DNA of 64,000 nt. It comes from a virus. Taxonomy: Duplodnaviria > Caudoviricetes. The stretch lies in IMG/VR virus record IMGVR_UViG_3300027763_000031, positions 1 to 64,000 of that record; one strand, given 5' to 3'. Below are positions 2,542 to 55,771 of the stretch, in pieces. Both the position numbers and the translations under genes were made by a program. The notes below the pieces were generated by a model. The model saw only the letters and a program-made list of their open reading frames with translations. It searched no databases and was not told where the DNA came from. Position 1 is the first letter of the stretch; each line of letters opens with the position of its first letter.

Positions 2542-3487
2542 ATGACAAACGAACTCAATAACCCAATGCTAGACCGGGCTAAAGGATGCTTAATCGGACT
2601 CGCAATTGGTGATGCCTTAGGTGCGCCCTCAGAATTCAGTGATAGGGGGTACCTTCAAACCTGTAACCAACTTCCAAGATGGTGGTCCATTCAACCTTAA
2701 AGCAGGCCAATGGACTGATGATACGTCTCAGGCTTTGTGCTTGGCGGATTCCATTCTCTCGGATAAGGGATTCAGCCAAGAAGACTTCCTAAATAGGATG
2801 GTCAATTGGAAGCAGCATGGCCATAACAGTAGCACAGGCGAATGCTTTGATATTGGCATTGGAACTGCTAATGCTTTATGGCATTACGAAAGTACAGGTA
2901 AGGTGCCGCTTAATGCTAATTCAGGGGGTAACGGCAACATAATGAGGCTAGCGCCTGTTGCTATAGCTTATCACAGGGACATTGACAAGGTTCAAGAAAT
3001 TGCGAGACTATCAAGCTTAACAACTCATGGACATAACTCGGCACTAACTTGTGCCAATCTCTTGGGCATCATGCTAAGGGCTCATATTACTGGGGACCAT
3101 GTTGAAGGTGACTTTCCCCTACCTAGGCGCACCGAAGATGACCCGCACGAATCAACCCTATGCAGCAATACGATATATAAATTGTCAAGTGCGGCAACAT
3201 CCGATGAAAGTGAGTGGCATAACATAAGCGGATTCTCAACCGATACCCTGTGTGCGGCTATGTATTGTTTCTTCAATACTGAGTCCTTCAAAGAATGTGT
3301 ATTAACTGCGGTTAATCTAGGCGGCGACACAGATAGCGTAGGTGCTGTAGCGGGTCAAATTGCCGGGGCGTATTATGGGCTTTCTGGCATACCCCCAAAA
3401 TTCATTGATGGGTTGCAGGACAGTGGCAAGTTTCTGAATTTGGCAGAACAATTATTTAACTTACACCGAAACAAAAATGAAAACTGA
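2542..3487 (+). CDS. ADP-ribosylglycohydrolase (DraG/ARH family), with a 1-nt frameshift at the G5 run 2645-2649
   Basis: DRAKGCLIGLAIGDALGAPSEF reads in the frame from 2542; GQWTDDT, GNGNIMRLAP and NLGGDTDSVGAVAGQIAGA read in the next frame. Confidence 0.85.
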
Positions 3488-4217
3488 AACGCAGAGGGGT
3501 AAATTCATCGCCTTCGAAGGTATCGACGGCTGTGGAAAGACAACCCAACTAGCAACTATCGCTGATTGGTTGTGGTCAAGTGGTTTATTGCCAGAAGGGG
3601 CACAGGTTGTAGAAACTCGTGCGCCGGGTTGTTTGCCTGCTATTAGGACCTTACTTAAAGATCCTGCCACTGCGTTAACCCCTAGAGCCGAACTCCTATT
3701 GATGATGGCTGATAGAGCCCAACATGTGGAGACTGTAATTAAGCCCGAACTTGAAAGAGGCAATTGGGTATTATGTGACCGTTTCTATACCAGCACCATG
3801 GCATACCAAGGGTGGGGTAGAGCCTTAGGGTGGCAAGCCGTTAAGCAAGCACATGAACTTGCGTGTGGTTTGTTTTATCCAGACTTTGAGATTTACTTTG
3901 ATGTTCCAGCTGATGAAGCTGCATTGAGGGTTGAAAGGCGGAATAAGCAATTGAGACAAGAACATGGTAGGAAACCCGATGTCAAAGATCGGTTCGAGTC
4001 CCAAGGGAGACCATTTATGGACCGGGTTATTGAAGGTTACGACAATGCAAGTAAGTTACCTTTTATTAAGGAGTATCCACATGTTACAATCGATGGGTGT
4101 TGCGATATCGGCAAGGTAACTGAGTATTGCAAGGATGCCATTGCCAACTTTGTTGCTGCCTTAGATGTGGTCAGTACCCCCATGGTGATTAGCCCGACCC
4201 GGTATAAGGTCATGTAG
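3477..4217 (+). CDS. tmk: thymidylate kinase
   Basis: FIAFEGIDGCGKTTQ, ADRAQH, LCDRF..ST.AYQG, DRFE. Confidence 0.93.
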   Translation: MKTETQRGKFIAFEGIDGCGKTTQLATIADWLWSSGLLPEGAQVVETRAPGCLPAIRTLLKDPATALTPRAELLLMMADRAQHVETVIKPELERGNWVLCDRFYTSTMAYQGWGRALGWQAVKQAHELACGLFYPDFEIYFDVPADEAALRVERRNKQLRQEHGRKPDVKDRFESQGRPFMDRVIEGYDNASKLPFIKEYPHVTIDGCCDIGKVTEYCKDAIANFVAALDVVSTPMVISPTRYKVM

Positions 4218-4699: not shown

Positions 4700-5179
4700 A
4701 TGACTCAATCCCTTGACTCCCTTATTCAAGATTTTACCTCTTACCAAGAGCAATTCAGGAAATTAGCTACGGAAAAACTTAAAGAGTTCTTCGTAAAATT
4801 CTGGGAAGAGAACCCTGCTATTGAAGCTGTAACTTGGAACCAATACGCGCCTTATTTCAACGATGGGGACCCGTGCGAATTCAGTGTGAATGATCCTTAC
4901 TTCACGAATGCCGAAGGAAAAGATCTTGAGGATATCACCCCGTGGGGTGAATACGACGGGGAAAAAGAGGACATTTGGTCTGAGTATTCGTTCACATGTA
5001 AATATGGAGAGGTTATTATCCCCGAAGGAGTAGACCCCATCTCAACAAAATCTCTTTCTTCTCTTTTAACCTCAAAGGTTATGGAAACGATTATGGAGGC
5101 AACCTTCGGGTCAGACAACACCGTAATTGCAACACGGGAGGGGTTCCAGGTGAATGACTTTTCGGGGGATCATGATTGA
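4700..5179 (+). CDS. conserved phage hypothetical protein
   Basis: WNQYAPYFNDGDPCEF motif; tightly coupled to upstream gene. Confidence 0.7.
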   Translation: MTQSLDSLIQDFTSYQEQFRKLATEKLKEFFVKFWEENPAIEAVTWNQYAPYFNDGDPCEFSVNDPYFTNAEGKDLEDITPWGEYDGEKEDIWSEYSFTCKYGEVIIPEGVDPISTKSLSSLLTSKVMETIMEATFGSDNTVIATREGFQVNDFSGDHD

Positions 5180-5300
5180 CTATACTGTGAAAGGCTTGTA
5201 ACTGATTCTTAATGTGAAGCCTAACCAGTGGTGATCAATCCCGACGGCAATCCCAAAGCAGGGTGCAGGGTAAACCCTAATTGCACGGCTAACAAGCAGC

Positions 5301-5864
5301 ATGGGGCAGGACGGCCCAAAAATAACAGAGGTCCACCCAACCCCTTTAGCCCCCCTAGCGCTATTACTCGAATGGGTCAGATCACCACTGGTAGACTCCA
5401 CCCTGAATGCCAATCAAATTGGCAATCTCAAGGGGTATACGCCTAGTGCATTAAATTGGTTGGTTGAAAATGAATATGTGGTTAGGTTCCATCGTGGTGG
5501 AGGAATGTTTAGGCCAGGCCCCCGCAGAACCAAAGTGGCGTCATATCCTGAACTTATCCGGGCTAGACTAGGTTTAAAGAAACCCAACCTAAAACCAAGC
5601 ACCATCCGATATTACAACTCTGTGCTAGGCATACGGCAACCTGAGGGTCTATTTAGAGTCAATGCAAAAGGTTTGCCTGCTATGTTTGAAGGTATCTTCG
5701 GGTTACCGCACCGGGTAAATGCAACCACATTCGCGAAAACTCATCAGCTACCAACCGCAAAAGTCAAAGAATGGTTTAGAGATTTAGTGAGGTCAGATCG
5801 GGCATCTATCGTCGCAGTTAGGGGCAAGCGACTGATTGTTTGCCGGGTGGAAACCGAACCTTGA
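5301..5864 (+). CDS. basic hypothetical protein
   Basis: 187-aa ORF, Arg/Lys-rich. Confidence 0.5.
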   Translation: MGQDGPKITEVHPTPLAPLALLLEWVRSPLVDSTLNANQIGNLKGYTPSALNWLVENEYVVRFHRGGGMFRPGPRRTKVASYPELIRARLGLKKPNLKPSTIRYYNSVLGIRQPEGLFRVNAKGLPAMFEGIFGLPHRVNATTFAKTHQLPTAKVKEWFRDLVRSDRASIVAVRGKRLIVCRVETEP

Positions 5865-20027: not shown

Positions 20028-23000
20028 AATACCTAACCTGGCGAGAGCGGGCCGCTCCGATAATCGCCCATGTCATATCCGAAGTTGGAACCACCGACCT
20101 GAAAATCCTCCGCAGCAAACTTCGAGAGGCTTATCCATTTGGGTTGAGGGAGTATTATCCGTATAAAACATGGTGTGATGAGATTAACCGGCAACTGATT
20201 TCGGAAAAAGTAAAAGCACCGAAGGCCATGCCTGCTGACCCTAACCAAATCACCCTATTTGAATCTTAAGTTGTACAAATGACACTTTCTGAAACTGACC
20301 TTAACCAAATCACCGAATCAATCTGCAACGCAGTTACCAAAGCCCAGTGCCTCTGGGAATGGGACAATGTCAACGATCCACCTTGCCACCCGTCTGATGA
20401 AGATTGGAAAGGGTGTAGTTCGTGCTATGCTAATCGAGAAATCCTAGCCGTTGCCTTCCGGGTCGCTGCGAACCACCTGCGCCCTGAAATTCTCGAAATT
20501 GGACAGTCTTTTATGGACCGATACGATCAAGCACTGAAACAACTGGCTGGAGTGATCGTTGAGGAACTAGAGCAAATTGCCAAACACTTGAAATCTTTTG
20601 ATTATGACTCATCAGAACCTTGATATGCTAACCAAAATTAAAGACTTTGCAGAGGATAACAGAGAACCTCTAATCGCGTTCGGTTTAGTTGGTACTCTAA
20701 TTGCCGGGTGTTCGTTTCTTCTGCTTCAACAGGAAAAAGCTTGGCAACAATTTGTAATTGACCATAATTGCGTAATTGTTGAACGTATCTTAGGGTCACC
20801 TACAATCGGTCATGGTTATGGAATGACTACCTCAGGTCAATTTGGTTATGGGATGGTTATAGGTAACGGATCGGATAAGACATCCTATGACTGTAACGAT
20901 GGAATTAGGTATACCAGATGATTTCACCCACCCCCTTCACTACACGGCTACCCGACCCTGAAAACGATTGCATGTCCCCCTTCATGGAAATCTGGGTGTT
21001 TTGTGATGATGGGTTTTGCGAGTTTGGGTGTTGGAGTTTATGGAAGTACGACCAACTCCTAGATTACCTCGACGACTGCAACGACCTCACTCACTGGTTA
21101 CCATACGACAAAATTCCACACCCAACAGAACAATGACTGACAAAACCCCGCTATAACAACTTACCGAGTGGCAAGAGCTTTCTGATTACTACCTGTCTCT
21201 ATACACAAAAGACTTAGTCGCACCGGAAAATTCCCTGTCTGTGGCTGTAGACCATTGGATGGATCCTATGGCCTTTGACAAAAGTTTCACACTACGGGCG
21301 AGGTGGAAATTAAATGAAAAAGAAACCACTCGTGATATTACTTTTTCAAGGTTCGAGTCTGAAATGAGTAATGGAACTCCGGTAGTCAAAGACGTAAAGA
21401 AACTTGCAGCGTCTATTGCTGAGGATGTAACTAAGGGCTTAGAAGAGGAAATGTTACGTTTCCTGGTCCAGAATGACCACTACAATACTGTCCGCCCATT
21501 GATTATGTCTGAACTTTACAGGCAATGATTACAACATTTCTTTTTCTCCTGGTATACACGGGCATTGCCGGTGCTACCGGATTCTTAATGGGGAGGGTGT
21601 TCTACCGTAATGAAAAGCAACTCCGAAAGATTGAGACTCGGCTCAGGACACATCCAGAGGAAGGTTTTGCAAAAGACGCAGAGAATTTGCGTAGAGACTG
21701 GGAACGAGCGACCGGAATTGTCTCAAGGAGTTTCAACAATCAAGGGAGATGAGCAAAAGTTGCGGATCCTGCATTAGCTTCATAAAGTATAAAAACCCAA
21801 CTTCATCGGGACTATGCGAAAAGTTAGACTGGTCCACCAAGTCAGATTGGGGACGTACCTGCCCCCACTGGGCCCGCAAACGCTACGACCGAAATCAATC
21901 AAAGCATTTAGCCAACAACGAAATAAACAACGAAGTCAAAACAAATGACCCCAACACGACCCTCATACATCCGCTGCATACGACACCCTCACGAGGATCT
22001 CTCAAAGCTGTCATGGTGCGGCCTTCCCTTGAGTAACTTTGACCTTCCTTTCGTAGACATCGACCACGCTGCCCATACTGTCAGGGACGAAGGTCGCCTT
22101 GTCCCCTGCCCAGACTGCATCAATGTGATTGCCTCGCTCCTATTTACTGTAATGGGCTACGCAATTATTGACCCAAAAGCAAAATGACCGAGCTTGACAA
22201 ATTGGCTCACCGAACCCGAACCCTATAGCATCCCCTACTCTGTGGACCCTGCTCAATTTGAGCCCTACGTAAAATGACAAAATTTGATGAAATTGCTAAT
22301 CGCCCAGATCATTCCTGGAACTGGTTTGCTCCAGACGGGTTAAACTCACTCGCATTAGACGGGGGCTTCACAAAAGAGCAACTTTTGGAATTGATACAGG
22401 CCATGGAAAACCCCGATGGCGATCCCGTGGTTTACACCGAAGAAATGGCAGCAGAGGACGACGAGTTACTGGCAAATGTGCCCACTCCACTAAGCACTTC
22501 AACGGGTGGAGACCCTGATGATCCTTCAAGAAATGGGGCAAGTTGATGAACAATGACCCAGACAATGTCTGAAGCACCTACCCCAATTTCCCTGGCCGAC
22601 CGTTTGCCTAGTGACCAAGACTGTGACATTGTTGAATGCTCTGCTTGGAAGATGAGACGCTGCTGGCTAGGAAAACCGCTTTACCATGCCGGAAACAAAC
22701 TATGGATCTGGGAGTGGGCGATTGCTCCAGAGACCCTGAAACTAGCGCCCTGGCCCCATACTCATTGGCTTCCTGCCGATACCGAAACCTTACCTGCCCG
22801 CAATGACTGACACAGAAAGAGCCTTAAAATTGCTTCAATTGCTTGAATCAACGTACCCGTCCACAGACTGGACATCCGTACCTGGGTTCACCCCGGAGCA
22901 AACCCAACTTGTGACAGTATTAATCAAACAACAAGTTTTGGAGGCTATGGATGAGGGGGTGTCCCTTGCGGTTGAAATGATCCGTTTGAGCCCTCCACAT

Positions 23001-46985: not shown

Positions 46986-49661
46986 ATGAGTAAATCCGAT
47001 AAAAAAGTGTTCTCAAAAAAAGTCCACGTATTTAAAGCTGGCCCCCAAACTAGCGCACAGGGTGTGCAGAGAAACTTCTCTGCTGACGACCTTAAGGAAG
47101 TTGCAAACTCATATGACCCCAAAGTCCATTCAGCCCCCCTTGTAATTGGCCACTCTGGAGATAACGACAGCGTACCTGCTTACGGGTGGATTAAAGGATT
47201 CTCTCAAAAGGGTGATGACTTATATGCAGATGTAGAATTTACGGACGTAGCTAAGGACTTGGTTAGAGGTGGTCATTATAGGAAAGTTTCCATTTCCTTC
47301 TATTCCCCCGATTCCCCCATTAACCCACACAAAGGCAAGTGGAGTGCAAGGCATTTGGCATTGCTCGGAGCTGCACCCCCAGCTGTGAAAGGCTTGGAGC
47401 CATTCTCTTTTAGCGAAGAAGAGGGAGTTTTCGACTTTGCAGTAGCCCTGTCCCCTGACCAACTTTTTGATAAGGACTTAGGACCGACGCTGCTTATAGA
47501 AAAAAGTCCCCTAGAAATGCTAAAAGAAAGACTAGATGAAGTCAAAAGTGAAGTCAATCAGTCCCTACAGCAATTAGAACAAAACCAGGACCAACAAACA
47601 GAATCGGATGTCGGCCAAGGCCAACAACCTGAAACTACAAATTCGGCGGATCAAAACGCCAACCCCGATAACCCTAATCAGCAATTCTCTGAAATGAAAA
47701 AGAACTTGGGGCGCGAAGGCGCTGAAATCACTGAGTCTACTCAAGAAGTAGCCAATCTAGAAACCAAAGCACCAGAAAACAAGCCAAAAATGCCCAAATC
47801 AAAAGTTTCTCCCAAAGCCAAACTTGATGATACCGAAGAAGACGGGGAGTTCAAGGAAGTTACCAAAGGTGGCAAAAAGTCCAAAATGATGGAAGAATCA
47901 CCTGAGGAAGAAGCCATGGAATCTCCTGAAGAAGAAATGGAAGAAGATTCCAAATACGCCGAAAAAGTCAAAGGCAAAATGACCAAAATGCCTATGGAAT
48001 CTCCTGAAGATGAATCAGAAGACGAAGGCACCGAATTCGAGGAAGGCATTAAGCGCCGTGTCTCTAAAGGAGCTGGTGGCCAGGAAGTTCAGGTTGTTGA
48101 GCAAGTATTTGAGGAAGGTATTGATTCTCAGCATAAGGAAGTTTCCAAGTCCAAGAAAAAGAAAGCCCCCAGTCAACCTGTGGACGAAACGGACATGGAC
48201 GAAGAGGAAATGGATGACGAGGATTCAGAGTACAATGAACTAGAGTACGACGAAGTTAGTCACAAAACCGCATCTAATGGGAAAGTATCCTTTGGTACCC
48301 ACAAAGGTGAAACCGGAGATAAAGTTACTGGCCGCTCAGTTACTGCCCGATCCAAAGATGATAGCTACGGAGCCCGTCAAAAGGCTGGTAAAGCCCCAGA
48401 GGAAGACCGCGATGGTGTAACCAGCGATGGTGAACAAGACGAGGACCGTCTCAAAACTGCAAAAAATAGCGAACAAGACGAAGACCGCCTAAAAACTGCC
48501 AGAGAGGAAGATGGTGACAATAGTCAGGAAGGTCGTTGGGCTGGTCAAGATACTATGGCCAAAGATAGAAACAACGATCAGTACGACGATGCCAGCACCA
48601 AGTACCCAGAGAAGCAACGTCCTGGAACTTCTGATGGGGAAGATCCCCATGGCCGCAGCGAAGGGCCCACCCCAGTTTCTAACCTTTCTGAGGAAGACCC
48701 CGACAATCTCGATATGGCAGTAGATGTCAAATCAGTTAAAGGTAACAAAACTTCCCGCGTCATTCACCAATCATCTAGCGACAAAAGACCCCCACTCAAA
48801 GGTGGCCCAATTGCCGACCATGCCGAAGGTGGTGAGCCTGATGAAGAGGGAGTCGGCCGAGAACCGAAATCCGCCAAGACTTCCAGTGGTAAAGCCCCCC
48901 GTGGCCGCGAGGGTGGCCCGACTGATTTCCCAACTCGCTCTGAGGAAGATCCTGATGACCTCGATATGGCAGTTGACCTAAAGGATGCTACCCAAAGTGA
49001 TAAGGTCCGGATTGTTCGTCAGAAGTCCGGTGAGAAGGCATCCGTCAATCATGCTGAAGGTGAAATGTCCCGCCGTAAAAAGGCAGCAGAAGAGGGAGAC
49101 CCGATGACCGTAACAGGCAAGGGTTCGACTTATAAGGAGCCTAAGGGTCCCATGGGAGCTTGTTCTGACGGGGAAGAAGAAGTTAAGTATAGCGGAATGG
49201 GTTCTGCCGGTCAAGCCCGTCCTACAGGGTTCCCAGCCCAAATCTACAAGGAGATCGAAGCCCTTAAGAAAGAAAACGATAGGCTCAAGAAGGAATTCGA
49301 AGAGCAGAAAGTCCATGCCCATAAACAAAGGATTTCCCACTACGTTGAGAATCTTTATAGCGACGGCAAACTGACCAATGCCATCATTCAGCAAGATGAT
49401 TTGCAAAGTTTCTGCGAAGGTTTAGAATTTGGAACCTTGGAATTCTCCGAAGGTGAAACACCAACGTCTAAACTCTTTGGAATCTTAAATCGCCTGCCAA
49501 GCATGGTGCATTTTGGAGAAATTGTTGGACCGGAAGACAAAGCATTTGAAGCAACCTTAGAAAACATGGACCCCCATGAAAGGGCCCTTGAAATGGTAAA
49601 ACGCGGTGAAGCCTCCGACTACTTGGAAGCCATCAAAACTTGCCTTTGGACTTCTAACTGA
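46986..49661 (+). CDS. prohead protease/scaffold protein (Mu-like) with long acidic linker
   Basis: APLVIGH, PAYGWI, YRKVSISFY, HLALLGAAPPAVKGL; C-terminal coiled coil. Confidence 0.85.
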   Translation: MSKSDKKVFSKKVHVFKAGPQTSAQGVQRNFSADDLKEVANSYDPKVHSAPLVIGHSGDNDSVPAYGWIKGFSQKGDDLYADVEFTDVAKDLVRGGHYRKVSISFYSPDSPINPHKGKWSARHLALLGAAPPAVKGLEPFSFSEEEGVFDFAVALSPDQLFDKDLGPTLLIEKSPLEMLKERLDEVKSEVNQSLQQLEQNQDQQTESDVGQGQQPETTNSADQNANPDNPNQQFSEMKKNLGREGAEITESTQEVANLETKAPENKPKMPKSKVSPKAKLDDTEEDGEFKEVTKGGKKSKMMEESPEEEAMESPEEEMEEDSKYAEKVKGKMTKMPMESPEDESEDEGTEFEEGIKRRVSKGAGGQEVQVVEQVFEEGIDSQHKEVSKSKKKKAPSQPVDETDMDEEEMDDEDSEYNELEYDEVSHKTASNGKVSFGTHKGETGDKVTGRSVTARSKDDSYGARQKAGKAPEEDRDGVTSDGEQDEDRLKTAKNSEQDEDRLKTAREEDGDNSQEGRWAGQDTMAKDRNNDQYDDASTKYPEKQRPGTSDGEDPHGRSEGPTPVSNLSEEDPDNLDMAVDVKSVKGNKTSRVIHQSSSDKRPPLKGGPIADHAEGGEPDEEGVGREPKSAKTSSGKAPRGREGGPTDFPTRSEEDPDDLDMAVDLKDATQSDKVRIVRQKSGEKASVNHAEGEMSRRKKAAEEGDPMTVTGKGSTYKEPKGPMGACSDGEEEVKYSGMGSAGQARPTGFPAQIYKEIEALKKENDRLKKEFEEQKVHAHKQRISHYVENLYSDGKLTNAIIQQDDLQSFCEGLEFGTLEFSEGETPTSKLFGILNRLPSMVHFGEIVGPEDKAFEATLENMDPHERALEMVKRGEASDYLEAIKTCLWTSN

Positions 49662-49666
49662 GCTAA

Positions 49667-50428
49667 ATGGATCTCCTTTCCTTAATTGGCTCTGTCACTA
49701 AAAGGAGGGGAGATTTTTTCTCTAATGCCGAATCGCTAGCCAAAAAAGCTAAAACCATCGGGAACCTAGAGAGCATGATGCTCAGGGATTCTAAGCTTTT
49801 AGTTAAGTCTCTTAAGGACAAAGACATAAAGTGGGACGAGTTTTCTCGTGCCATGGTTGACAAAACCTTAGAGGCATCTTTGGCAGGAGTCTACCTTGGG
49901 TCAGCATCATCGAAGCCTAAAGCAAAATTGGAAAAAGCATGGCCAACAGTTGTCGGACAATTGGTGCCACCATTACTTAAATTCCTCGATGTGACAAAGG
50001 CCCGATTTGAAAATAATGCAATCTCTATAGTCGGTGACGAAATGGATTTTGCCTCCAAAGGTCCATCTGGCGACTATGATTGGGACATCCTTGATGATCC
50101 TGATTACGATTCGGAAGATCCTGAGGTTCAGGATGCCATACAGAATTCGATTGATTCCGGTGTGGGGCAAACCTGGCAAGGGGTTTTTTCTAGGGTTTCT
50201 CGCTACCTTGTTACCCCAGCTTACGCATTTTTTCAACTGGGTGATTACCTAGTGAAGGAAGAACAGGGCCACAAGGAAATGATGCGAGTTGCCAAAAAGG
50301 ACAAAAAAACTTGCAAAGAATGCAAAGAATACGAGAAGCTAGGTTGGCAGCCAATCGGTTCCCTACCACTTCCTGGGCAGAGATGCAGATGCTATGGCAG
50401 ATGTAGATGTCTGGTCAATTACCGGTAG
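49667..50428 (+). CDS. putative head morphogenesis/minor capsid protein
   Basis: C-terminal TCKEC...GWQPIGSLPLPG..C.C...CRC. Confidence 0.6.
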   Translation: MDLLSLIGSVTKRRGDFFSNAESLAKKAKTIGNLESMMLRDSKLLVKSLKDKDIKWDEFSRAMVDKTLEASLAGVYLGSASSKPKAKLEKAWPTVVGQLVPPLLKFLDVTKARFENNAISIVGDEMDFASKGPSGDYDWDILDDPDYDSEDPEVQDAIQNSIDSGVGQTWQGVFSRVSRYLVTPAYAFFQLGDYLVKEEQGHKEMMRVAKKDKKTCKECKEYEKLGWQPIGSLPLPGQRCRCYGRCRCLVNYR

Positions 50429-50536
50429 CCCATCAGCAACCCCACGTAAGTGGGGGTAAAACCAATTATCACATCAGCTAGGTGAAAAACAAGTCCTAGA
50501 GTAAACCAAAAGTCAACACATATTAAGAAAAAGATC

Positions 50537-51010
50537 ATGAGTCTAAACATTGCACCCGTTTACGCAAAACAGTACATCAGATATGCTTCCACCTGGCAAG
50601 CCGCTACCGACAACCAAGCTGGTAGTATTGGCGTAGTCGAAATCCCCGAATTTTCGGTTGTCGCTCAAGCAACCTATGCCGGGGCTAATAAGGTTTGCTC
50701 CCCTGGTAATTTAACATCCTTTACCGGGGCTATCGTAGGTGTTAGCCAGTCTTACATCCCGACTGCACTATCTCAACCTCAAACTGCCCGTCAAGTTAGT
50801 GTCGCCAGTAGCGGCTCTTTGATCGTCGAAGTTAGCGCTTCGGCTGTCGCTGCTTTTACCATTGGTAGCCGCCTTTCGGTTGGCACCGACGGTAAAGCGC
50901 TCCCAACCGCCAACAGCGGTGTGAACGTTACCTTAGATGGTACCACTCCACTTATTCGTGAGATTGTTACGATCGGTCGTCGTACCTTGGTTGTTGCGAC
51001 TTTCAACTGA
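50537..51010 (+). CDS. putative head decoration/capsid cement protein
   Basis: small Ala/Gly/Val-rich beta protein directly before the capsid gene; IVGVSQ, SVASSG, FTIGSRLSVGTDGKA. Confidence 0.6.
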   Translation: MSLNIAPVYAKQYIRYASTWQAATDNQAGSIGVVEIPEFSVVAQATYAGANKVCSPGNLTSFTGAIVGVSQSYIPTALSQPQTARQVSVASSGSLIVEVSASAVAAFTIGSRLSVGTDGKALPTANSGVNVTLDGTTPLIREIVTIGRRTLVVATFN

Positions 51011-51032
51011 TTGCTGATTGAATTTTTACTAT

Positions 51033-51058
51033 GGGGCTCCGAAAGGGGCTCCTTTTTT
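51033..51058 (+). terminator. Rho-independent terminator
   Basis: ggggctcc-gaaa-ggggctcc + T6. Confidence 0.85.
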
Positions 51059-51179
51059 ATAGTTAGGCTTCCATTAGCAAAGTGTGGGTATAACTACAGT
51101 GACCCCGAAGTTTTCGGACTTTTGGGTTAGATTGCCAACGCAATCTTTGAAGTCAACCTAGAAAAGGAAATCATCTATT

Positions 51180-54100
51180 ATGATGAATCATGGCGGTTCC
51201 GCTCAAGGGTAACCTTGGGATGAAAATTGGGTGAATTGCTGGGAAGCCTACGGCTTCAAACGAAAGTTTGATGCTATGGTAATCAGCAGCGAAGCGTTTT
51301 CGGGAGAAAACGAACGTTCAACGACTAACAGCATACTACTAGAACAGTAATGAAGCTGACACGAGCGCCCGACTCTTTGCTTAGGTAAAGATGATGATAT
51401 AGTCTGAACTTTGTAGAAATACAAAGATGTGAAGGATAAAGAGCCTTTACGATAACATAATGCTACAACAGACCTACGCAGGGGTCGATCCCATTTTTTA
51501 GAGTGGCTTTGTTTTTAACAAAGAAAATCCGGTGAATTGCTGGGAAGCCTACGGCTTCAAACGAAAGTTTGATGCTATGGTAATCAGCAGCCAAGGCTTT
51601 TAGGGATAAAAGCAAGGTTCAACGACTAGATTAAGTAGCCTAGAACAGGTGAACAATCCACGAGCGCCGGGCGTTTTGTTTACAAAACGATGATATAGTC
51701 TGAACTCTTTGGAAACAAAGAGAGGTAGGGGATAAAGAGCCTCTACGTTAACAAATGTCTCACCACCCTCGCGCAAGGTTTCATGCTACCGTCTACCAAC
51801 ATTGCGAATCAATGAGGTTCCTTCAGGGGGTGACCCCTGTCGAATAATCGGGTGAACTGCTGGGACACCTTACTTTTGCTATGCAAAAGAGGCAATCAGC
51901 AGCCAAGTTTACTTCGGGTCTCTTGTTGCTATAATAAGAGTGAAGTAAGAAGGTTCAACGACTAGAAAGTGACTGACCCAAGAATAATCTTTCCACGAGC
52001 GCCCGACTCTTTGCTTAGGCAAAGATGATGATATAGTCTAAACTGCATGGAAACATGCAGAGCAAAACGTTAAGTTTTGTATATTATTCATAGCACCGGT
52101 GGTAGACACGCCAACTCGTGCAGGACGTATCCTGCGCTTCGGTATTCCATATGCCGCTTAACTCCGTGAGGGGTTATGAAAAATTGGGTGAATTGCTGGG
52201 AAGCCTACGGCTTCAAACGAGAGTTTGAAAGCTATGGTAATCAGCAGCGAAGCCGTCAAGGGATTGACGGAACGTTCAACGACTAGAGTTAGTAATCTAG
52301 AACAGATGAAAACTCCACGAGCGCCTGACGTTTTGTTTACAAAACGATGATATAGTCTGAACTCTTTGGAAACAAAGAGAGGTAGGGGATAAAGAGCCCC
52401 TGCGATAACATAATTGAAGGAACAGTAAATAGCTTGCTGTTGTAAAATTGGGTGAATTGCTGGGAACCCCTAACGTAAAGGCGAGGGAAATCAGCAGCCA
52501 AGTCTACTGCGTCGAGGAATCACTATGATTTCTGTAGTGGAAAGGTTCAACGACTAGACGATGAGTTTCGACAACAATAACTCGTCCACGAGCGCCCGAC
52601 GTTTTGTTTACAAAACGATGATATAGTCTGATCTGCATAGAAACATGCAGAGGTAGGGAATAAAGAGTCTCTACGATAACATGGTGTTGCTATCAACGAC
52701 TTCCGTCGTGCTTACGGTAATTAGTTTGTGCCGTAAATAAATTGGGTGAATTGCTGGGAAGCCTACGGTTTCAAACGAGAGTTTGACGCTATGGTAATCA
52801 GCAGCGAAGCCGTCAAGGGATTGACGGAACGTTCAACGACTAGATTAAGTAGCCTAGAACAGGTGAACAATCCACGAGCGCCCAATGCCCTACATAGTAA
52901 TGTAAGGCAAAGATATAGTCTGACCTACATGGAAACATGTAGAAGCAAGGGATAAAGAACCTTTGCGATAACAAATGACAAACATCCCCTACGTCCAAAG
53001 CCGTTACGACTCCGAGCCTTATGCTCTGGAGCAGGAAGTGGTCGCATGGGAATTGCCTAAATCTTTGGGCCTTGCCGTTGCCTAGTTAGCGCGGTAAGAA
53101 TAATAGGGTGAATTGCTGGAAAGCCCCCAACTTAATGGCCAATCAGCAGCGAAGCGTTTTCGGGAGAAAACGAACGTTCAACGACTAGATTAAGTAGCCT
53201 AGAACAGGTGAACAATCCACGAGCGCCTTACGTCTGACTAACCTTTATAGGGGGGTATAGACGGTGATATAGTCTGAACTGTAAAGATGGTAAATTTACA
53301 GAAACAAAGGATAAAGAGCCTTTGTGATAACAACCTTGGAAGAGGTTAGATCGATAGCCTCCGTCAGTTGAAAAACTGATAGAAAAAACTGGGTGAATTG
53401 CTGGGAAGCCTACGGCTTCAAACGAAAGTTTGATGCTATGGTAATCAGCAGCCAAGGCTTTTAGGGATAAAAGCAAGGTCCAACGACTAACAGCATACTA
53501 CTAGAACAGTAATGAAGCTGACACGAGCGCCCAGCACCCTGATAAGGGTGAAGATATAGTCTGAACTTTCTGGAAACAGAGAGAAGTAAAGGATAAAGAG
53601 CCTTTGCGATAACATTATTGAATCGAGAACGCAGGGGAAGGTTGTAAGGGCCTTCCTTGTGACAAAGGTCACTAAAAATCGGGTGAATTGCTGGGACACC
53701 TTACTTTTGCTACGCAAAAGAGGCAATCAGCAGCCAAGGCTTTTAGGGATAAAAGCAAGGTTCAACGACTAGAGTTAGTAATCTAGAACAGATGAAAACT
53801 CCACGAGCGCCTGATGTCTTACCGTGCTTAACGGTGGGGCAAAGATATAGTCTGAACTCCATGGAAACATGGAGAAGTATGGGATAAAGAGCCCGTACGG
53901 TAACAACATTTTGCCTGCACAAGTGGATTATTTTTTACGAACGATTTCGATCGCAGCGTAGGTCCACTATAAATTGGGTGAATTGCTGGAACCCCCGAGT
54001 GGGCAATCAGCAGCGAAGCCGTCAAGGGATTGACGGAACGTTCAACGACTAACAGCATACTACTAGAACAGTAATGAAGCTGACACGAGCGCCCAATGTC

Positions 54101-55217
54101 TTACAAAGTACAGTAATCGTGTACATAGTGGGGCAATAATATAGTCTGAACATTACCAACAACAAGGTAATGAATCGGCGGATAAAGAGCCGCTGAGTTA
54201 ACAAATGCTACGCGCCATCGAGACTCGCAATGCGATGTCTAGGCTAAACACATTGGCCCTATGAGATTAGTCTCATTTAGAAAATTGGGTGAATTGCTGG
54301 GAAGCCTACGGCTTCAAACGAAAGTTTGATGCTATGGTAATCAGCAGCGAAGCCGTCAAGGGATTGACGGAACGTTCAACGACTAACAGCATACTACTAG
54401 AACAGTAATGAAGCTGACACGAGCGCCCGACGTTTTGTTTACAAAACGATGATATAGTCTGAACTGCATAGAAACATGCAGAAGCAAGGGATAAAGAGCC
54501 CTCGCGATAACATAATGAATGAACAGCTACGAGTACACCGTTGCTCAAGCTGTTTCAGTGACTGGCAGCTACAATCCATACGAGCCCTACAATGGGACTC
54601 CTGGCTCACAAACTGGTCTTGGTTTTACAACCTGGACTACCTTCAACACCGCTTATGGCACAGCCACTGGCCCTGCCGCATGGTCTGGTGCAACCTCTAA
54701 TCCCATTGAGGACATCCTGACCCTGAAGCGTGCTGTTGCCAACCAGATCGGCATTCGTCCGAACTCTGCTGTTCTTGGAACTTCAGTTTTCGACCTCTTG
54801 CTGACCAACGAAGCGATCCTTGATCGTATCAAGTACACCTCCGCCGATAGCATCGACACAGATGTCATCGCTCGCTACTTCGGTCTTGAGCGTGGCCTGC
54901 GCGTAGCTGAAGGGCGTTATTTGGCCAACGACGGCTCCTTGCAGCCTGTCTTCCCCGCCAATGGCATCCTCCTGTTCTACAGCCCCAACGGTCCTTCTGA
55001 TTCGATCATGCCTGCGGGTGGTGCTAATGCTGCGACTCCGGCCTTCAGTTATACTTATCAGTTGACAGGTACCCCAGCCGTCCGTCCCGAGTACTACATT
55101 CGCGAACGCCGTGTCGTGCGTGCTGAAATCACCATCGAACGTGTGGTTAACTTGGTTGGCCTCGGTGCATCTGGTCTTATCGGTTCTGGCGCTATGATCA
55201 CCAACATCTTGTCCTGA
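51180..55217 (+). CDS. major capsid protein, 351 aa, 12 exons: 51180-51188, 51463-51494, 51758-51809, 52087-52143, 52417-52426, 52687-52718, 52978-53058, 53339-53346, 53621-53642, 53914-53928, 54208-54245, 54518-55217
   Basis: joined exons = 1056 nt with no internal stop: MMNLQQTYAGVDPILTTLAQGFMLPSTNIANFIAPVVDTPTRAGRILRFGKEQFAINDFRRAYGTNIPYVQSRYDSEPYALEQEVVAWELPEEVIENAGEGPAQVDLRAIETRNAMSRLMNSYEY...; VDPILT.LAQG, FGKE.F, PIEDI...K..V....GIRPN are capsid-like; position after protease and decoration genes. Confidence 0.9.
51189..51462 (+). ncRNA. group I intron 1 (274 nt, phase 0)
   Basis: P gaattgctgggaa, Q aatcagcag, R gttcaacgacta, S gatatagtc; P1 GAAT/GTTC; ends in G. Confidence 0.9.
51495..51757 (+). 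ncRNA. group I intron 2 (263 nt, phase 2)
   Basis: PQRS core; P1 CCAT/GTGG; P3 ccggtg/cgccgg; ends in G. Confidence 0.9.
51810..52086 (+). ncRNA. group I intron 3 (277 nt, phase 0; apparent terminal A)
   Basis: PQRS core; P1 GAAT/GTTC; P10 ATGAG/TTCAT; atypical 3' domain. Confidence 0.8.
52144..52416 (+). ncRNA. group I intron 4 (273 nt, phase 0)
   Basis: PQRS core; P1 CGGT/GCCG; P10 TTCC/GGAA. Confidence 0.9.
52427..52686 (+). ncRNA. group I intron 5 (260 nt, phase 1)
   Basis: PQRS core; P1 AACAGT/GCTGTT; P10 ATAGC/GCTAT. Confidence 0.9.
52719..52977 (+). ncRNA. group I intron 6 (259 nt, phase 0)
   Basis: PQRS core; P1 TTACGGT/GCCGTAA; P10 GTTTGT/ACAAAC. Confidence 0.92.
53059..53338 (+). 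ncRNA. group I intron 7 (280 nt, phase 0)
   Basis: PQRS core; P1 GCCT/GGGC; P10 TCTTT/GAAGA. Confidence 0.9.
53347..53620 (+). ncRNA. group I intron 8 (274 nt, phase 2)
   Basis: PQRS core; P1 GAGGT/GCCTC; P10 TCGAT/ATCGA. Confidence 0.9.
53643..53913 (+). ncRNA. group I intron 9 (271 nt, phase 0)
   Basis: PQRS core; P1 GGAAGGT/GCCTTCC. Confidence 0.9.
53929..54207 (+). ncRNA. group I intron 10 (279 nt, phase 0)
   Basis: PQRS core; P1 AGTGGAT/GTCCACT with enlarged loop; P10 GCGTAG/CTACGC. Confidence 0.9.
54246..54517 (+). ncRNA. group I intron 11 (272 nt, phase 2)
   Basis: PQRS core; P1 GGCT/GGCC; P10 CATT/AATG. Confidence 0.9.
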
Positions 55218-55245
55218 TAAGGATAGGAAATAAAGAGGTGATCCC

Positions 55246-55689
55246 ATGGCAATTCTCAGACCTTTAACAAAGTCGCAATACGAGGTATCGTTCGTAGCTC
55301 CCAACGGGGTGTCTTTAATCGCTGTTTTTACAAAATTCAGTGGTATCAAAGATTCTTCAGAAAAGAGCGAATACGCCAATGGCACTGGAAACCGAAAGTA
55401 CCATGTCGTTGGCCCACGAACTGCAGATAATGTTACTCTTACTGCTCCGTATGATCCTACGATCTTCAAGCAACTAGAGAACTTCTGGTTAAACTACAAT
55501 TGTCAAGATGTTACCGTTACAGTAACCCCTAGGGACTGTACTGGTACAGGATCTGCTCCAGCCGGTGGCGCGTACACCTGCTACGGTTGTAAATTCCTAT
55601 CAATCACTACTGCCAACGTTGATCGCGACAGCGGAAACGTCCAGGAAATTGAAGTGGAACTGACCGTCAATATTTGGGACAGAACTTGA
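55246..55689 (+). CDS. tail tube protein
   Basis: FTKFSGI, GPRTADNVTLT, V.VTP, Y..YGC, DRDSGNVQEIEVELTV; GAGG SD. Confidence 0.75.
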   Translation: MAILRPLTKSQYEVSFVAPNGVSLIAVFTKFSGIKDSSEKSEYANGTGNRKYHVVGPRTADNVTLTAPYDPTIFKQLENFWLNYNCQDVTVTVTPRDCTGTGSAPAGGAYTCYGCKFLSITTANVDRDSGNVQEIEVELTVNIWDRT

Positions 55690-55707
55690 TTTTGTGGTTC
55701 AGTAATT

Positions 55708-55729
55708 GCCCCCGAAAGGGGGCTTTTTT
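55708..55729 (+). terminator. Rho-independent terminator
   Basis: gccccc-gaaa-gggggc + T6. Confidence 0.9.
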
Positions 55730-55771
55730 GTAGGCAGGGTAAAACATACATAACAGGATTACCAACGGATA

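Follow-up and report, generated by a model that had tools for sequence, protein, structure and literature searches.

How a single phage gene could come to hold eleven group I introns built from the same few peripheral hairpins, in a different combination each time, is the question raised by this locus. In the window (the whole 64,000-nucleotide stretch that was analysed, from viral record IMGVR_UViG_3300027763_000031), positions 51189-54517 comprise 11 tandem, ORF-less group I introns of 259-280 nt, all inserted into the first 357 coding nucleotides of the major capsid gene, where the smallest exons measure 8-15 nt (Table 1). Rfam's RF00028 gave 11 plus-strand matches (51119-54481; 55-101 bits, the gathering cut-off being 50). 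The phage is a large cyanophage from fresh water (a lake), the close relatives of which have genomes of about 280 kb, and the array lies at the 5′ end of its major capsid gene. The Pfam family Phage_cap_E matches the ORF of the last exon (E 1.2e-08). Among isolates, Synechococcus phage S-CBWM1 is the nearest; its major capsid protein matches at 67.8% identity across 95% of the protein, in one uninterrupted piece.

All 11 introns are excised from the capsid pre-mRNA in vivo. In contigs of two RNA libraries (X2 and X5), and in an intron-free contig (L001) that matches flanks and exons at 100% identity, the 12 exons are joined exactly into a frame of 351 aa, and the introns are therefore spliced in nature; the RNA contigs skip 11 of the 11 introns, and those joints are absent from the DNA run X1. 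The junctions set from L001 and the RNA contigs place the first and last intron bases where the original prediction had drawn the limits of the array. The base preceding the 5′ splice site is a uridine in every intron, and each P1 guide matches its own insertion site. Intron I3 has an aberrant 3′ tail, ending in A where G is usual, and is spliced nonetheless: its junction (51809>52087) is unambiguous in X2, X5 and L001, single contigs at k=31 contain the intron whole in both X1 and X2, and the same tail is found in haplotypes L122, L124, L126 and L127.

Table 1. Exons, introns and module slots of the capsid gene (window positions; module type in brackets; scores are those of RF00028).
Feature	Position	Strand	Length (nt)	Evidence or score	P5	P6	P7.1 position	P8
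Major capsid protein gene	51180..55217	+	1056 spliced	12 exons, 351 aa; open CDS, Phage_cap_E
Exon 1	51180..51188	+	9	Start codon; junction 51188>51463 in X2/X5 RNA contigs and L001
I1	51189..51462	+	274	91.5 bits; skipped in RNA contigs, not in DNA run X1	51243-51280 (A)	51291-51315 (a)	51328-51359 (alpha)	51370-51396 (y)
Exon 2	51463..51494	+	32	RNA contig and L001 junctions
I2	51495..51757	+	263	93.6 bits	51544-51581 (A)	51592-51616 (b)	51629-51658 (beta)	51669-51692 (x)
Exon 3	51758..51809	+	52	RNA contig and L001 junctions
I3	51810..52086	+	277	94.4 bits	51864-51893 (B)	51904-51952 (long, private)	51965-51993 (private)	52004-52030 (y)
Exon 4	52087..52143	+	57	RNA contig and L001 junctions
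I4	52144..52416	+	273	85.8 bits	52200-52238 (near-A)	52249-52273 (c)	52286-52315 (gamma)	52326-52349 (x)
Micro-exon 5	52417..52426	+	10	Letters present in RNA contigs between 52144 and 52687; also L001
I5	52427..52686	+	260	94.7 bits	52464-52488 (private)	52499-52544 (long, private)	52557-52586 (private)	52597-52620 (x)
Exon 6	52687..52718	+	32	RNA contig and L001 junctions
I6	52719..52977	+	259	89.8 bits	52758-52795 (near-A)	52806-52830 (c)	52843-52872 (beta)	52883-52912 (private)
Exon 7	52978..53058	+	81	RNA contig and L001 junctions
I7	53059..53338	+	280	61.3 bits	53120-53140 (short, private)	53151-53175 (a)	53188-53217 (beta)	53228-53266 (private)
Micro-exon 8	53339..53346	+	8	Letters between 53058 and 53621 in X2 and X5 RNA contigs; also L001
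I8	53347..53620	+	274	101 bits	53405-53442 (A)	53453-53477 (b)	53490-53521 (alpha)	53532-53553 (private)
Exon 9	53621..53642	+	22	RNA contig and L001 junctions
I9	53643..53913	+	271	90.6 bits	53695-53724 (B)	53735-53759 (b)	53772-53801 (gamma)	53812-53844 (private)
Micro-exon 10	53914..53928	+	15	RNA contigs and L001
I10	53929..54207	+	279	55.1 bits	53990-54004 (very short, private)	54015-54039 (c)	54052-54083 (alpha)	54094-54138 (private)
Exon 11	54208..54245	+	38	RNA contig and L001 junctions
I11	54246..54517	+	272	89.2 bits	54301-54338 (A)	54349-54373 (c)	54386-54417 (alpha)	54428-54451 (x)
Exon 12	54518..55217	+	700	C-terminal two thirds of capsid protein

When every intron was cut at five invariant core blocks, the slots between these blocks (P5, P6, the P7.1 position and P8) were found to be filled by a few discrete, fully base-paired variants. 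The consensus fold comprises P3, P4, P5, P6, a helix at the P7.1 position that each intron carries as an extra hairpin, P8, P9 and a further 3′ hairpin, and 34 of its 50 pairs are maintained through changes on both sides. This typing reproduces the groups of introns that the original prediction had assigned to each slot, including those of the post-P7 slot, which is the P7.1 position; the long P5 type is identical in I1, I2, I8 and I11, and differs by 2-3 nt in I4 and I6. All 11 four-slot combinations differ, as had been claimed. The intron-specific P3 covariation proposed for I2, I7 and I8 was also borne out, with the seven predicted P3 pairs intact in all 11 introns, the three outer pairs covarying, and the outer pairs of I2 and of I7 unique to each and complementary. 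Shared modules are identical blocks of 25-38 nt, and the longest identical block common to two introns (90 nt) adjoins unrelated modules. The original prediction had named recombination tests and the comparison of orthologous introns across strains as checks. A PHI-type test on 98 informative columns gave an observed value of 0.470 against 0.743 ± 0.018 after permutation, none of 2000 permutations being as low, which places the mosaic pattern well outside chance, and 61% of the informative site pairs were incompatible. With module types from the window alone, P6 and the P7.1 position form the only strictly tree-incompatible pair among the six slot pairs (three cycles), showing all four combinations of two alleles each, with alleles that differ at many paired positions; the remaining five pairs lack association, yet are formally tree-compatible. 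Module sharing among the window introns showed no decay with distance along the array, and a dependence on proximity is thus unsupported within the array.

The comparison across strains covered five closely related haplotypes, three of which (the window, L123 and L124) are single assemblies, and 65 same-site comparisons of orthologous ORF-less introns. Module type differed at the same site in 32 of the 65 comparisons for P6 and in 22 for P7.1, but in only 7 for P8, 7 for the P9 region, 1 for P5 and 0 for P1-P2. The P6 orthologues were identical in 31 cases, of another type in 32 and intermediate in 2. The exons of the window, L122 and L124 are 98.2-98.7% identical, and P6 differs in 16 of the 29 comparisons among these three haplotypes; taking the strains together, the three P6 alleles are each found at nearly all sites. 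The I8 orthologue in L122 shows 99.5% identity and an unchanged set of modules, and the I9 copy in L123 is 99.3% identical. DNA of run X3 contains an allele that lacks I9 (joint 53642>53914), as do L122, L124 and L127. Because P6 and P7.1 vary at the same site and P1-P2 and P5 never or hardly do, the modules are exchanged as cassettes among paralogous introns, and they move faster than point mutation. According to these population data, the cassettes under active exchange are P6 and the hairpin at the P7.1 position, P5 and P8 being largely site-linked, and the proposal that all four slots reassort independently was therefore overstated.

Sharing within and between genomes points in the same direction. 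Within the window's own genome, types are shared by 16 of 55 intron pairs at P5 and by 10 of 55 at P6, compared with 5 and 3 of 202 pairs, respectively, between the window and other sites of four other genomes, and with 1 of 18 in each case for same-site orthologues in other genomes. Sharing is far higher within the genome than between genomes, a signature of concerted evolution. P6 type c occurred, among the first 120 loci, only in the window (four introns), and was later also found in the close strains L122-L127. As to locality, a complete relative (G002) has three more group I introns some 50 kb away, and none of the modules seen in the window recurs in them. The clade has at least 13 intron sites; in relatives, P8 inserts of 538-739 nt encode HNH proteins, one of which matches NUMOD3 (E 2e-05), and these proteins cluster by insertion site.

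We put the probability at roughly three in four that the sites were colonised by one intron family and that hairpins were then exchanged among the 11 paralogues. An unlikely alternative is that no module moves between sites and that, at each of them, whole introns are substituted through homing or through ordinary homologous recombination of co-infecting strains; old allelic variation would then be reshuffled, and introns at different sites would resemble each other only because the intron once spread among them. At sites 9, 41, 93, 273, 281, 303, 318 and 356, both the presence of an intron and its possession of an endonuclease are polymorphic, the allele without I9 is present in DNA, and phages recombine freely when co-infecting; allelic recombination in co-infected cells, and not exchange between sites, could account for part of the variation between strains. 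However, P6 changes while P1-P2, P5 and mostly P8 stay, and the replaced unit is therefore a hairpin of 25-30 nt, not an intron. Identical hairpins also occupy up to four to six sites per genome and are absent from the orthologous sites in the first set of relatives, and the presence of the three P6 alleles at nearly every site requires repeated transfer between sites. Tree-like divergence without any recombination, with the shared hairpins as retained ancestral states or as convergence under selection for stable helices, has almost no probability in our estimate. The helices are under structural selection and five of the six slot pairs are formally tree-compatible in the window, but this reading is contradicted by the PHI-type test, by the cycles between P6 and P7.1, and by the turnover between strains, where 98-99% identical strains carry different alleles at orthologous sites with only 2 intermediates in 65 comparisons.

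The combinations would be unreal, an objection that the original prediction had itself raised, if short-read assemblers had threaded the repeats of the 11 introns, or of co-occurring strains, out of phase. The introns share exact blocks as long as 90 nt, more than a small assembly k, lake samples contain several strains that differ in their modules, and the window haplotype itself has no replicate; viral contigs gave no match to an exact 196-nt query from I8. The data of the four runs are contigs assembled at k=31, which end at blocks common to several introns, and support for the phasing of the window across its 60-90-nt repeats is therefore indirect. One RNA contig of X2 (54286-54518), which may be a genuine variant or a chimera produced at k=31, has P6 type a in the context of I11, illustrating that short-k assemblies can mis-thread these repeats. 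Nevertheless, two further mosaic haplotypes recur letter for letter in different datasets: L122 matches L129 at every position of a 5071-nt stretch that takes in the entire array, and L126, L127 and L128 are identical over overlaps of 1578 and 1162 nt. In the independent DNA run X3, contigs at k=31 contain the site-36 intron, lack I9 and carry an I7 orthologue with another P6, as in those haplotypes. No more than 9-13 nt of core sequence lie between one slot and the next, so that each pairing of P6 with P7.1 lies inside one read or k-mer, and mis-threading cannot create the tree-incompatible pairings. The exon order is confirmed by the RNA contigs and L001, and P3 joins matching 5′ and 3′ halves in all 11 introns (three with private outer pairs). 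Contigs of X1 that were assembled at k=31 and are free of errors contain I3, together with the unique parts of each of the remaining introns. Taken together, these results make an assembly origin of the mosaic quite improbable.

Several known systems resemble parts of this array. Fungal mitochondrial genes such as cox1 can contain many group I introns, sometimes with micro-exons, and these introns spread by endonuclease-driven invasion followed by endonuclease loss. The window shares the first two of these features and probably the third, but the fungal introns belong to diverse subgroups, are mostly not close paralogues and reside in an organelle rather than a virus; to our knowledge, concerted helix exchange is not the pattern described for them. 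Cluster J mycobacteriophages reportedly have single introns in capsid and tail genes (PMC3706429), and thus resemble the present phage in the interruption of a capsid gene by a spliced intron, although not in number. Phage group I introns in protein-coding genes include those of T4 td, nrdB and sunY, and Staphylococcus phage Twort has three introns in one gene. Here too, paralogous introns lie within one gene and some carry HNH or GIY-YIG homing endonucleases; however, these genes have two or three introns, compared with 11 in 357 nt, exons down to 8 nt and at least 13 sites in the clade of the window, and we know of no description of helix exchange between their paralogous introns. In Twort, the ribonucleotide reductase gene also contains two introns, and PMC3984707 cites work on the reductase introns. 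The omega intron of yeast mitochondrial 21S rRNA and its endonuclease gene are described, in the available part of Wu and Hao (2014, PMC4059233), as mosaics formed by horizontal transfer and gene conversion, with rapid gain and loss of the intron and endonuclease gene and conversion between introns with and without the endonuclease. Both cases thus involve mosaic group I intron sequences ascribed to conversion, but exchange at omega, as presented there, occurs among alleles of one site in different strains or species, whereas in the phage it involves single hairpins and paralogues at different sites of one gene. Huge, intron-rich Jug phages average 18.5 short ORF-less group I introns per genome, according to the available part of PMC12880540, with essential genes split and splicing checked with metatranscriptome reads, features that the present phage shares. 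Host and phage lineage differ, the split Jug phage genes described there are in two or three fragments, and that part of the source reports neither a dense one-gene array nor module exchange.

The proposal that ongoing gene conversion shuffles ribozyme domains is supported as far as ongoing shuffling is concerned, by the strain turnover and the concerted evolution; the choice of conversion over copy-choice is conjectural. Under the preferred reading of hairpin exchange among paralogues, the sites were probably colonised successively by relatives of a single intron with an HNH homing endonuclease in P8, and the endonucleases, still present in orthologous introns of related phages, would have been lost in those of the window. 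Lying about 300 nt apart and having invariant catalytic-core blocks in common, the introns would then recombine with each other, and single peripheral hairpins may be copied whole from intron to intron, P6 and the P7.1-position hairpin, with about three fully compensated alleles each, being most affected. The most likely route would be ectopic (non-allelic) gene conversion, in which a misaligned heteroduplex forms and non-homologous hairpins are repaired independently; alternatively, replication may switch templates, with the core blocks of 9-13 nt and the shared modules next to them as anchors. Classical recombination usually needs far more homology than such 9-13 nt, and this counts against the explanation. 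A hairpin moved as a unit remains self-complementary, and recombinants would therefore still splice and be tolerated, so that swaps may be neutral and would produce a different combination in every intron and every strain. The array is, in this respect, a natural example of shuffled ribozyme parts.

An Rfam scan of the 64-kb window returned 11 matches to RF00028, all on the + strand between 51119 and 54481 and scoring 55–101 bits against a gathering score of 50, and none elsewhere in the window. The ORF 3′ of these matches (54519–55217) matches Pfam Phage_cap_E, and a Mu-type portal is encoded among the neighbouring genes, identifying the host gene as a phage major capsid gene whose 5′ part has been split up. 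A homologue search with this C-terminal ORF yielded no longer homologues, and the full gene was obtained from L001, a related contig without introns that is 100% identical to 47004–51189 and 54518–55730 of the window and matches only short pieces of the region between. The end of L001 (5742–5837) is a 96-nt repeat of window positions 54553–54647, joined after 55730, which looks like an assembly join in an RNA-derived contig. Excision of 11 segments of 259–280 nt leaves an open frame of 1056 nt (351 aa, start at 51180), with exons of 9, 32, 52, 57, 10, 32, 81, 8, 22, 15, 38 and 700 nt in order and all 11 introns (I1–I11) within the first 357 nt of the coding sequence. The junctions, taken from L001 and RNA contigs, place the first and last intron bases exactly at 51189 and 54517, the limits named in the original prediction.

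Coordinates, insertion sites (coding nt) and module types of the 11 introns; near-A, variant of the otherwise identical type A; private, type found in that intron only.
Intron	Position	Strand	Site	P5	P6	P7.1 position	P8
I1	51189–51462	+	9	A	a	alpha	y
I2	51495–51757	+	41	A	b	beta	x
I3	51810–52086	+	93	B	long private	private	y
I4	52144–52416	+	150	near-A	c	gamma	x
I5	52427–52686	+	160	private	long private	private	x
I6	52719–52977	+	192	near-A	c	beta	private
I7	53059–53338	+	273	private	a	beta	private
I8	53347–53620	+	281	A	b	alpha	private
I9	53643–53913	+	303	B	b	gamma	private
I10	53929–54207	+	318	private	c	alpha	private
I11	54246–54517	+	356	A	c	alpha	x

Three of the exons are micro-exons (52417–52426, 10 nt; 53339–53346, 8 nt; 53914–53928, 15 nt). 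Because these few bases act both as 3′ exon for one ribozyme and as P1 substrate for the ribozyme that follows, splicing of neighbouring introns is probably ordered or interdependent. I1 and I3 have the same last four exon bases upstream and the same internal guide (51181–51204; 51802–51825), and I4 and I6 have the last four exon bases and the guide core in common (52136–52160; 52711–52740). These common guides suggest that new sites were picked by their likeness to old ones, via an endonuclease target or reverse splicing.

Splicing in nature was assessed in two DNA runs (X1 and X3) and two RNA runs (X2 and X5), all as k=31 contigs, among 24 public runs listed for the region; the runs containing the region derive from lake and freshwater metagenomes. 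Contigs of both RNA runs carry the joints 51188>51463, 51494>51758, 51809>52087, 52718>52978 and 54245>54518, and also join 52144>52687, 53058>53621 and 53642>54208 through the exact letters of the 10-, 8- and 15-nt exons; L001 likewise joins all junctions. None of the RNA splice joints was present in X1, which covers 90% of the sampled words of the region, indicating that all 11 introns are removed from RNA in the lake samples. A zero-depth bin in the k=31 contigs of X1 (51372–51495) carries no inference. One joint, 53642>53914, from which I9 alone is missing, was present in the DNA run X3 and represents an intron-less allele.

All 11 introns individually exceed the RF00028 gathering score (55.1–101 bits). 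Their RNAalifold consensus contains P3, P4, P6, P8 and P9 together with the base of P5, a P7.1-position helix and a further 3′ hairpin, with 34 of the 50 consensus pairs kept through changes on both sides; P7, as a pseudoknot partner, lies outside this pair scoring. P3 is intact in every intron, and each 5′ splice site has a U at −1 that, by inspection of the sequences, pairs with a site-specific guide in P1. Between the P7 5′ strand and the P3 3′ strand, cmscan flags an insertion of 29–32 nt; it forms a helix supported by two-sided changes in 4/4 pairs, and a single hairpin is evident. Extra P7.1/P7.2 hairpins characterise the IA-like subgroup, to which the introns may belong. The window introns, at 259–280 nt without insert, contain no endonuclease ORF in a peripheral loop, and the sole + strand ORF of at least 60 aa wholly inside an intron (52746–52955, I6) runs across the ribozyme core.

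A terminal G is near-universal in group I introns, and 10 of the 11 introns end in G. I3 (51810–52086) ends in A at 52086, and the joint between exons 3 and 4, seen in X2, X5 and L001, permits no shift. Its 3′ tail is without the hairpin conserved in the other ten introns, and the same tail occurs in L122, L124, L126 and L127, which are contigs of close strains. Six more distant orthologues at coding nt 93 (L009, L012, L015, L018, L020 and L075) end in G and carry another G immediately following the P7 3′ strand, a position (52040) occupied by A in I3. A further change private to I3 lies in the P3–P4 junction block (51857).

Each intron was cut at five invariant core blocks into a site-specific P1–P2 region, four internal slots (P5; P6; the P7.1 position, meaning here the hairpin that lies between P7 and the P3 3′ strand; and P8) and a P9 region. 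The resulting slot listing reproduced every module membership of the original prediction, which had described the introns as mosaics of four independently reassorting slots, and the full combination proved unique to each of the 11 introns. Variants of P6, like those of the P7.1 hairpin, have the same loop and stems that differ with full compensation; they are discrete alleles of one helix and not unrelated inserts. The longest exact blocks common to two introns are 90 nt (I10/I11), 88 nt (I2/I8) and 74 nt (I1/I11). P9 lacks a GAAA loop in two introns, I7 and I10, the same two that have a short P5; P5 thus looks coupled to the loop of P9, which would account for P5 staying with its site.

Recombination within the window was significant, in line with the prediction: 61% of site pairs among 98 gap-free informative columns were incompatible, and a PHI-type statistic of 0.470 compared with 0.743 ± 0.018 under permutation of site order, with 0/2000 permutations as low. 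For P6 and the P7.1 position, all four combinations of a or b with alpha or beta occur (I1, I7, I8 and I2), which amounts to 3 cycles. Each of the five other slot pairs is formally compatible with a tree and shows no association, the shared-both counts lying at or near expectation. The window by itself proves exchange between P6 and P7.1, and the remaining pairs are consistent with free assortment. Module sharing showed no trend with distance along the array, which gives no support to selection keeping neighbouring introns unlike as a protection against mis-pairing or deletion. Adjacent introns have the same P6 type in 2/10 neighbour pairs and the same P7.1 type in 2/10, by our own estimate about what chance would give for three alleles.

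Close strains (L122–L129) were found by a search with the upstream gene, whose protein is 98–99% identical, and their arrays are collinear with that of the window. L122, a 279-kb contig with terminal repeats, is 100% identical to L129 over 5071 nt including the whole array, and L126, L127 and L128 match without any difference over 1578 and 1162 nt; in both cases the contigs come from different datasets.

P6/P7.1 types of orthologous introns in five haplotypes (WIN, the window); -, no intron; HEG, endonuclease-bearing allele; prime, near-identical variant; o, type absent from the window.
Site	WIN	L122	L123	L124	L127
9	a/alpha	a/beta	b/alpha	c/beta	-
41	b/beta	c/beta'	b/gamma	b/gamma	o/gamma
150	c/gamma	b/gamma	-	c/gamma	c/gamma
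192	c/beta	b/beta	b/gamma	b/beta	-
273	a/beta	HEG	a/gamma	b/gamma'	-
318	c/alpha	a/alpha	HEG	c'/alpha	c/alpha
356	c/alpha	c/alpha	-	b/alpha	c/alpha

We compared ORF-less orthologous introns in all ten pairs of these five haplotypes (n=65 comparisons). The type differed in 32/65 for P6 and 22/65 for the P7.1 position, against 0/65 for P1–P2, 1/65 for P5, 7/65 for P8 and 7/65 for the P9 region, so that introns at the same site do carry other modules, in the strain comparison that the original prediction had called for. The P6 of orthologues was identical in 31 comparisons, of another type in 32 and intermediate in 2, and the flanking P1–P2 and P5 kept their type. Sites 93, 281 and 303 kept one combination wherever an ORF-less intron is present. 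The window, L122 and L124 have exons that are 98.2–98.7% identical, yet differ in P6 in 16/29 comparisons and in P7.1 in 8/29. Given all-or-none turnover of P6 between constant flanks at this level of exon identity, the exchanged unit is a single hairpin, moving faster than point substitution.

Assembly chimerism among similar introns or co-occurring strains, named in the original prediction as what would refute it, could produce mosaics of this kind, since shared blocks reach 90 nt and related strains co-occur within the same samples. The k=31 contigs do not phase modules across shared blocks of 60–90 nt, and the phasing of I1, I2, I8, I10 and I11 across the longest shared blocks comes from the window's assembly alone; a scan of metagenome contigs found no contig of the window's strain, and an exact 196-nt query from I8 had 0 matches among viral contigs, which is uninformative on a second copy. 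One RNA contig of X2 (54286–54518) equals I11 except for ten changes at 54354–54369 that turn P6 type c into type a, and may represent another natural variant or a chimera of k=31 assembly. Nevertheless, the pattern is not explained by chimerism: independent datasets yielded two of the mosaic haplotypes letter for letter, and these two differ in P6 at 4/6 shared ORF-less sites. The core between neighbouring slots is only 9–13 nt, so each neighbouring pair of modules falls within one read; exon order is borne out by the RNA contigs and L001; and P3 pairs both halves of every intron, including the private outer pairs of I2, I7 and I8, which pair correctly as the prediction had stated. Moreover, the independent DNA run X3 (k=31 contigs) shows three features of L122-type contigs: the continuation of exon 2 at nt 36 into another intron with a B-like start, the lack of I9, and an orthologue of I7 whose P6 is of another kind.

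A wider set of relatives was obtained by searching viral contigs with the C-terminal ORF (the best 80 of 289), and the spliced coding sequence was aligned to 120 loci with long gaps free. The intron family occupies at least 13 sites (coding nt 9, 36, 41, 70/74, 93, 150, 160, 192, 273, 281, 303, 318 and 356) and is polymorphic for presence: most loci at ~85% capsid protein identity carry none, L010 has five introns, and L020, with an 87% identical protein, has at least eleven. The nt 36 and 70/74 sites are empty in the window and occupied, for example, in L122 (5451–5726) and L009 (1641–1855), respectively; the nt 70/74 introns are only 215 nt long, without recognisable P7.1 and P8 anchors. Among 70 typed introns, 51 were unique. 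P5 types were shared by 16/55 pairs of the window's own introns, 5/202 pairs with other sites in four other genomes and 1/18 pairs of same-site orthologues, and the corresponding values for P6 were 10/55, 3/202 and 1/18. P7.1 (10/55, 26/202 and 5/18) and P8 (7/55, 8/112 and 2/9) showed no within-genome excess. Paralogues are thus more alike than orthologues, as in concerted evolution, for P5 and P6 and not for P7.1 and P8.

At seven window sites, and additionally at site 273 in L122, alleles of relatives carry P8 inserts of 538–739 nt encoding HNH-type proteins, one of which matches NUMOD3 (E 2e-05). Such inserts were found in L009, L012, L015, L017, L018, L020, L057, L062, L066, L075, L079, L087, L098, L122, L123 and L127, and in L010 at 3470–4186 and 4937–5587; the endonuclease ORF has been lost from all window introns. 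L010 and L013 are distinguished solely by whether the site-303 intron contains the ORF. The proteins group according to site, with 59–99% identity within a site and mostly 26–45% between sites, those of sites 303 and 318 being closer to each other, which fits successive colonisation of neighbouring sites by diverging intron–endonuclease pairs. Related contigs (e.g. L002, L003, L005, L006, L022 and L023) often stop a few hundred bases 5′ of the final capsid exon, the outcome to be expected of assemblies that break within the array, and the capsid genes of this clade are likely mis-annotated as short ORFs. In L098 (3437–4461), the match to the last-exon protein spans 1025 nt instead of ~700, which suggests that the 3′ part of this capsid gene contains an insertion, perhaps a further intron. 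The complete 279-kb record of L122 (G002) has 17 RF00028 matches including the capsid array. Matches outside the array include those at 20378–21454 and 72235–73397, some lying just 3′ of the array, either within the 3′ part of the capsid gene or beyond it. Three matches stand in tandem ~50 kb from the array; exchange with this distant cluster was considered and rejected, as it has none of the window's modules, and exchange therefore seems confined to the array.

An identical hairpin at 4–6 sites of one genome, together with the occurrence of all three P6 alleles at most sites across strains, requires transfer between sites; allelic recombination alone is insufficient for this distribution. Two introns might pair out of register from a long shared block, with each non-homologous hairpin bubble then repaired independently, or replication might proceed by copy-choice with the core blocks as microhomology, and we infer that these are the two likeliest routes. 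The original prediction proposed ongoing gene conversion. Its central element, exchange between paralogous introns, is supported by incompatible segments and all-or-none P6 differences; gene conversion itself would stand beside copy-choice as a candidate route. Selection for intact helices would remove recombinants with breakpoints inside a hairpin, and the modules would in that way come to coincide with helices. We favour, with a probability of roughly 0.6, reading the array as a natural, running case of domain shuffling, in which P6 and P7.1 hairpins pass as cassettes between neighbouring paralogous introns at a rate above point substitution, the invariant core serves as anchor, and every strain holds a different functional combination, in addition to 8–10-nt exons shared by two ribozymes and an intron that ligates with a terminal A.

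In the closest isolate, Synechococcus phage S-CBWM1, the capsid protein is 67.8% identical and matches in one uninterrupted piece, indicating that introns are absent there. Staphylococcus phage Twort has genes with two or three group I introns. To our knowledge, the array described here, which packs 11 introns into 357 nt, leaves exons of 8–10 nt and belongs to a family with at least 13 sites across the clade, is the densest group I intron array in any viral or bacterial gene. Earlier reports describe intron-rich huge gut phages with splicing checked by metatranscriptomes (PMC12880540), an intron in the capsid gene of mycobacteriophages (PMC3706429) and mosaic omega introns of yeast mitochondria ascribed to gene conversion between alleles (PMC4059233). 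A search of full-text literature, with partial coverage that omits most subscription journals and is no proof of novelty, found no array of such density and no helix exchange between paralogous phage introns.

Modular RNA architecture has a textbook case in group I ribozymes, for which evidence that peripheral helices are interchangeable comes mostly from engineering. In this array, such swaps appear to have occurred naturally and repeatedly, generating dozens of working chimeras. Comparison of their splicing makes it possible to test directly which helices are truly independent: P6 and P7.1 exchange freely, and P5 seems tied to its partner loop L9 and to its site. Ordinary gene callers miss the capsid gene in such phages, and contigs tend to break in the array, as they do in many relatives (among the best 80 of 289). 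The array lies within the structural gene that an abundant lake cyanophage expresses most highly, and it is spliced under field conditions. This raises the questions of the order of splicing, of how translation is coupled to splicing, and of how the phage tolerates direct repeats able to delete capsid exons.
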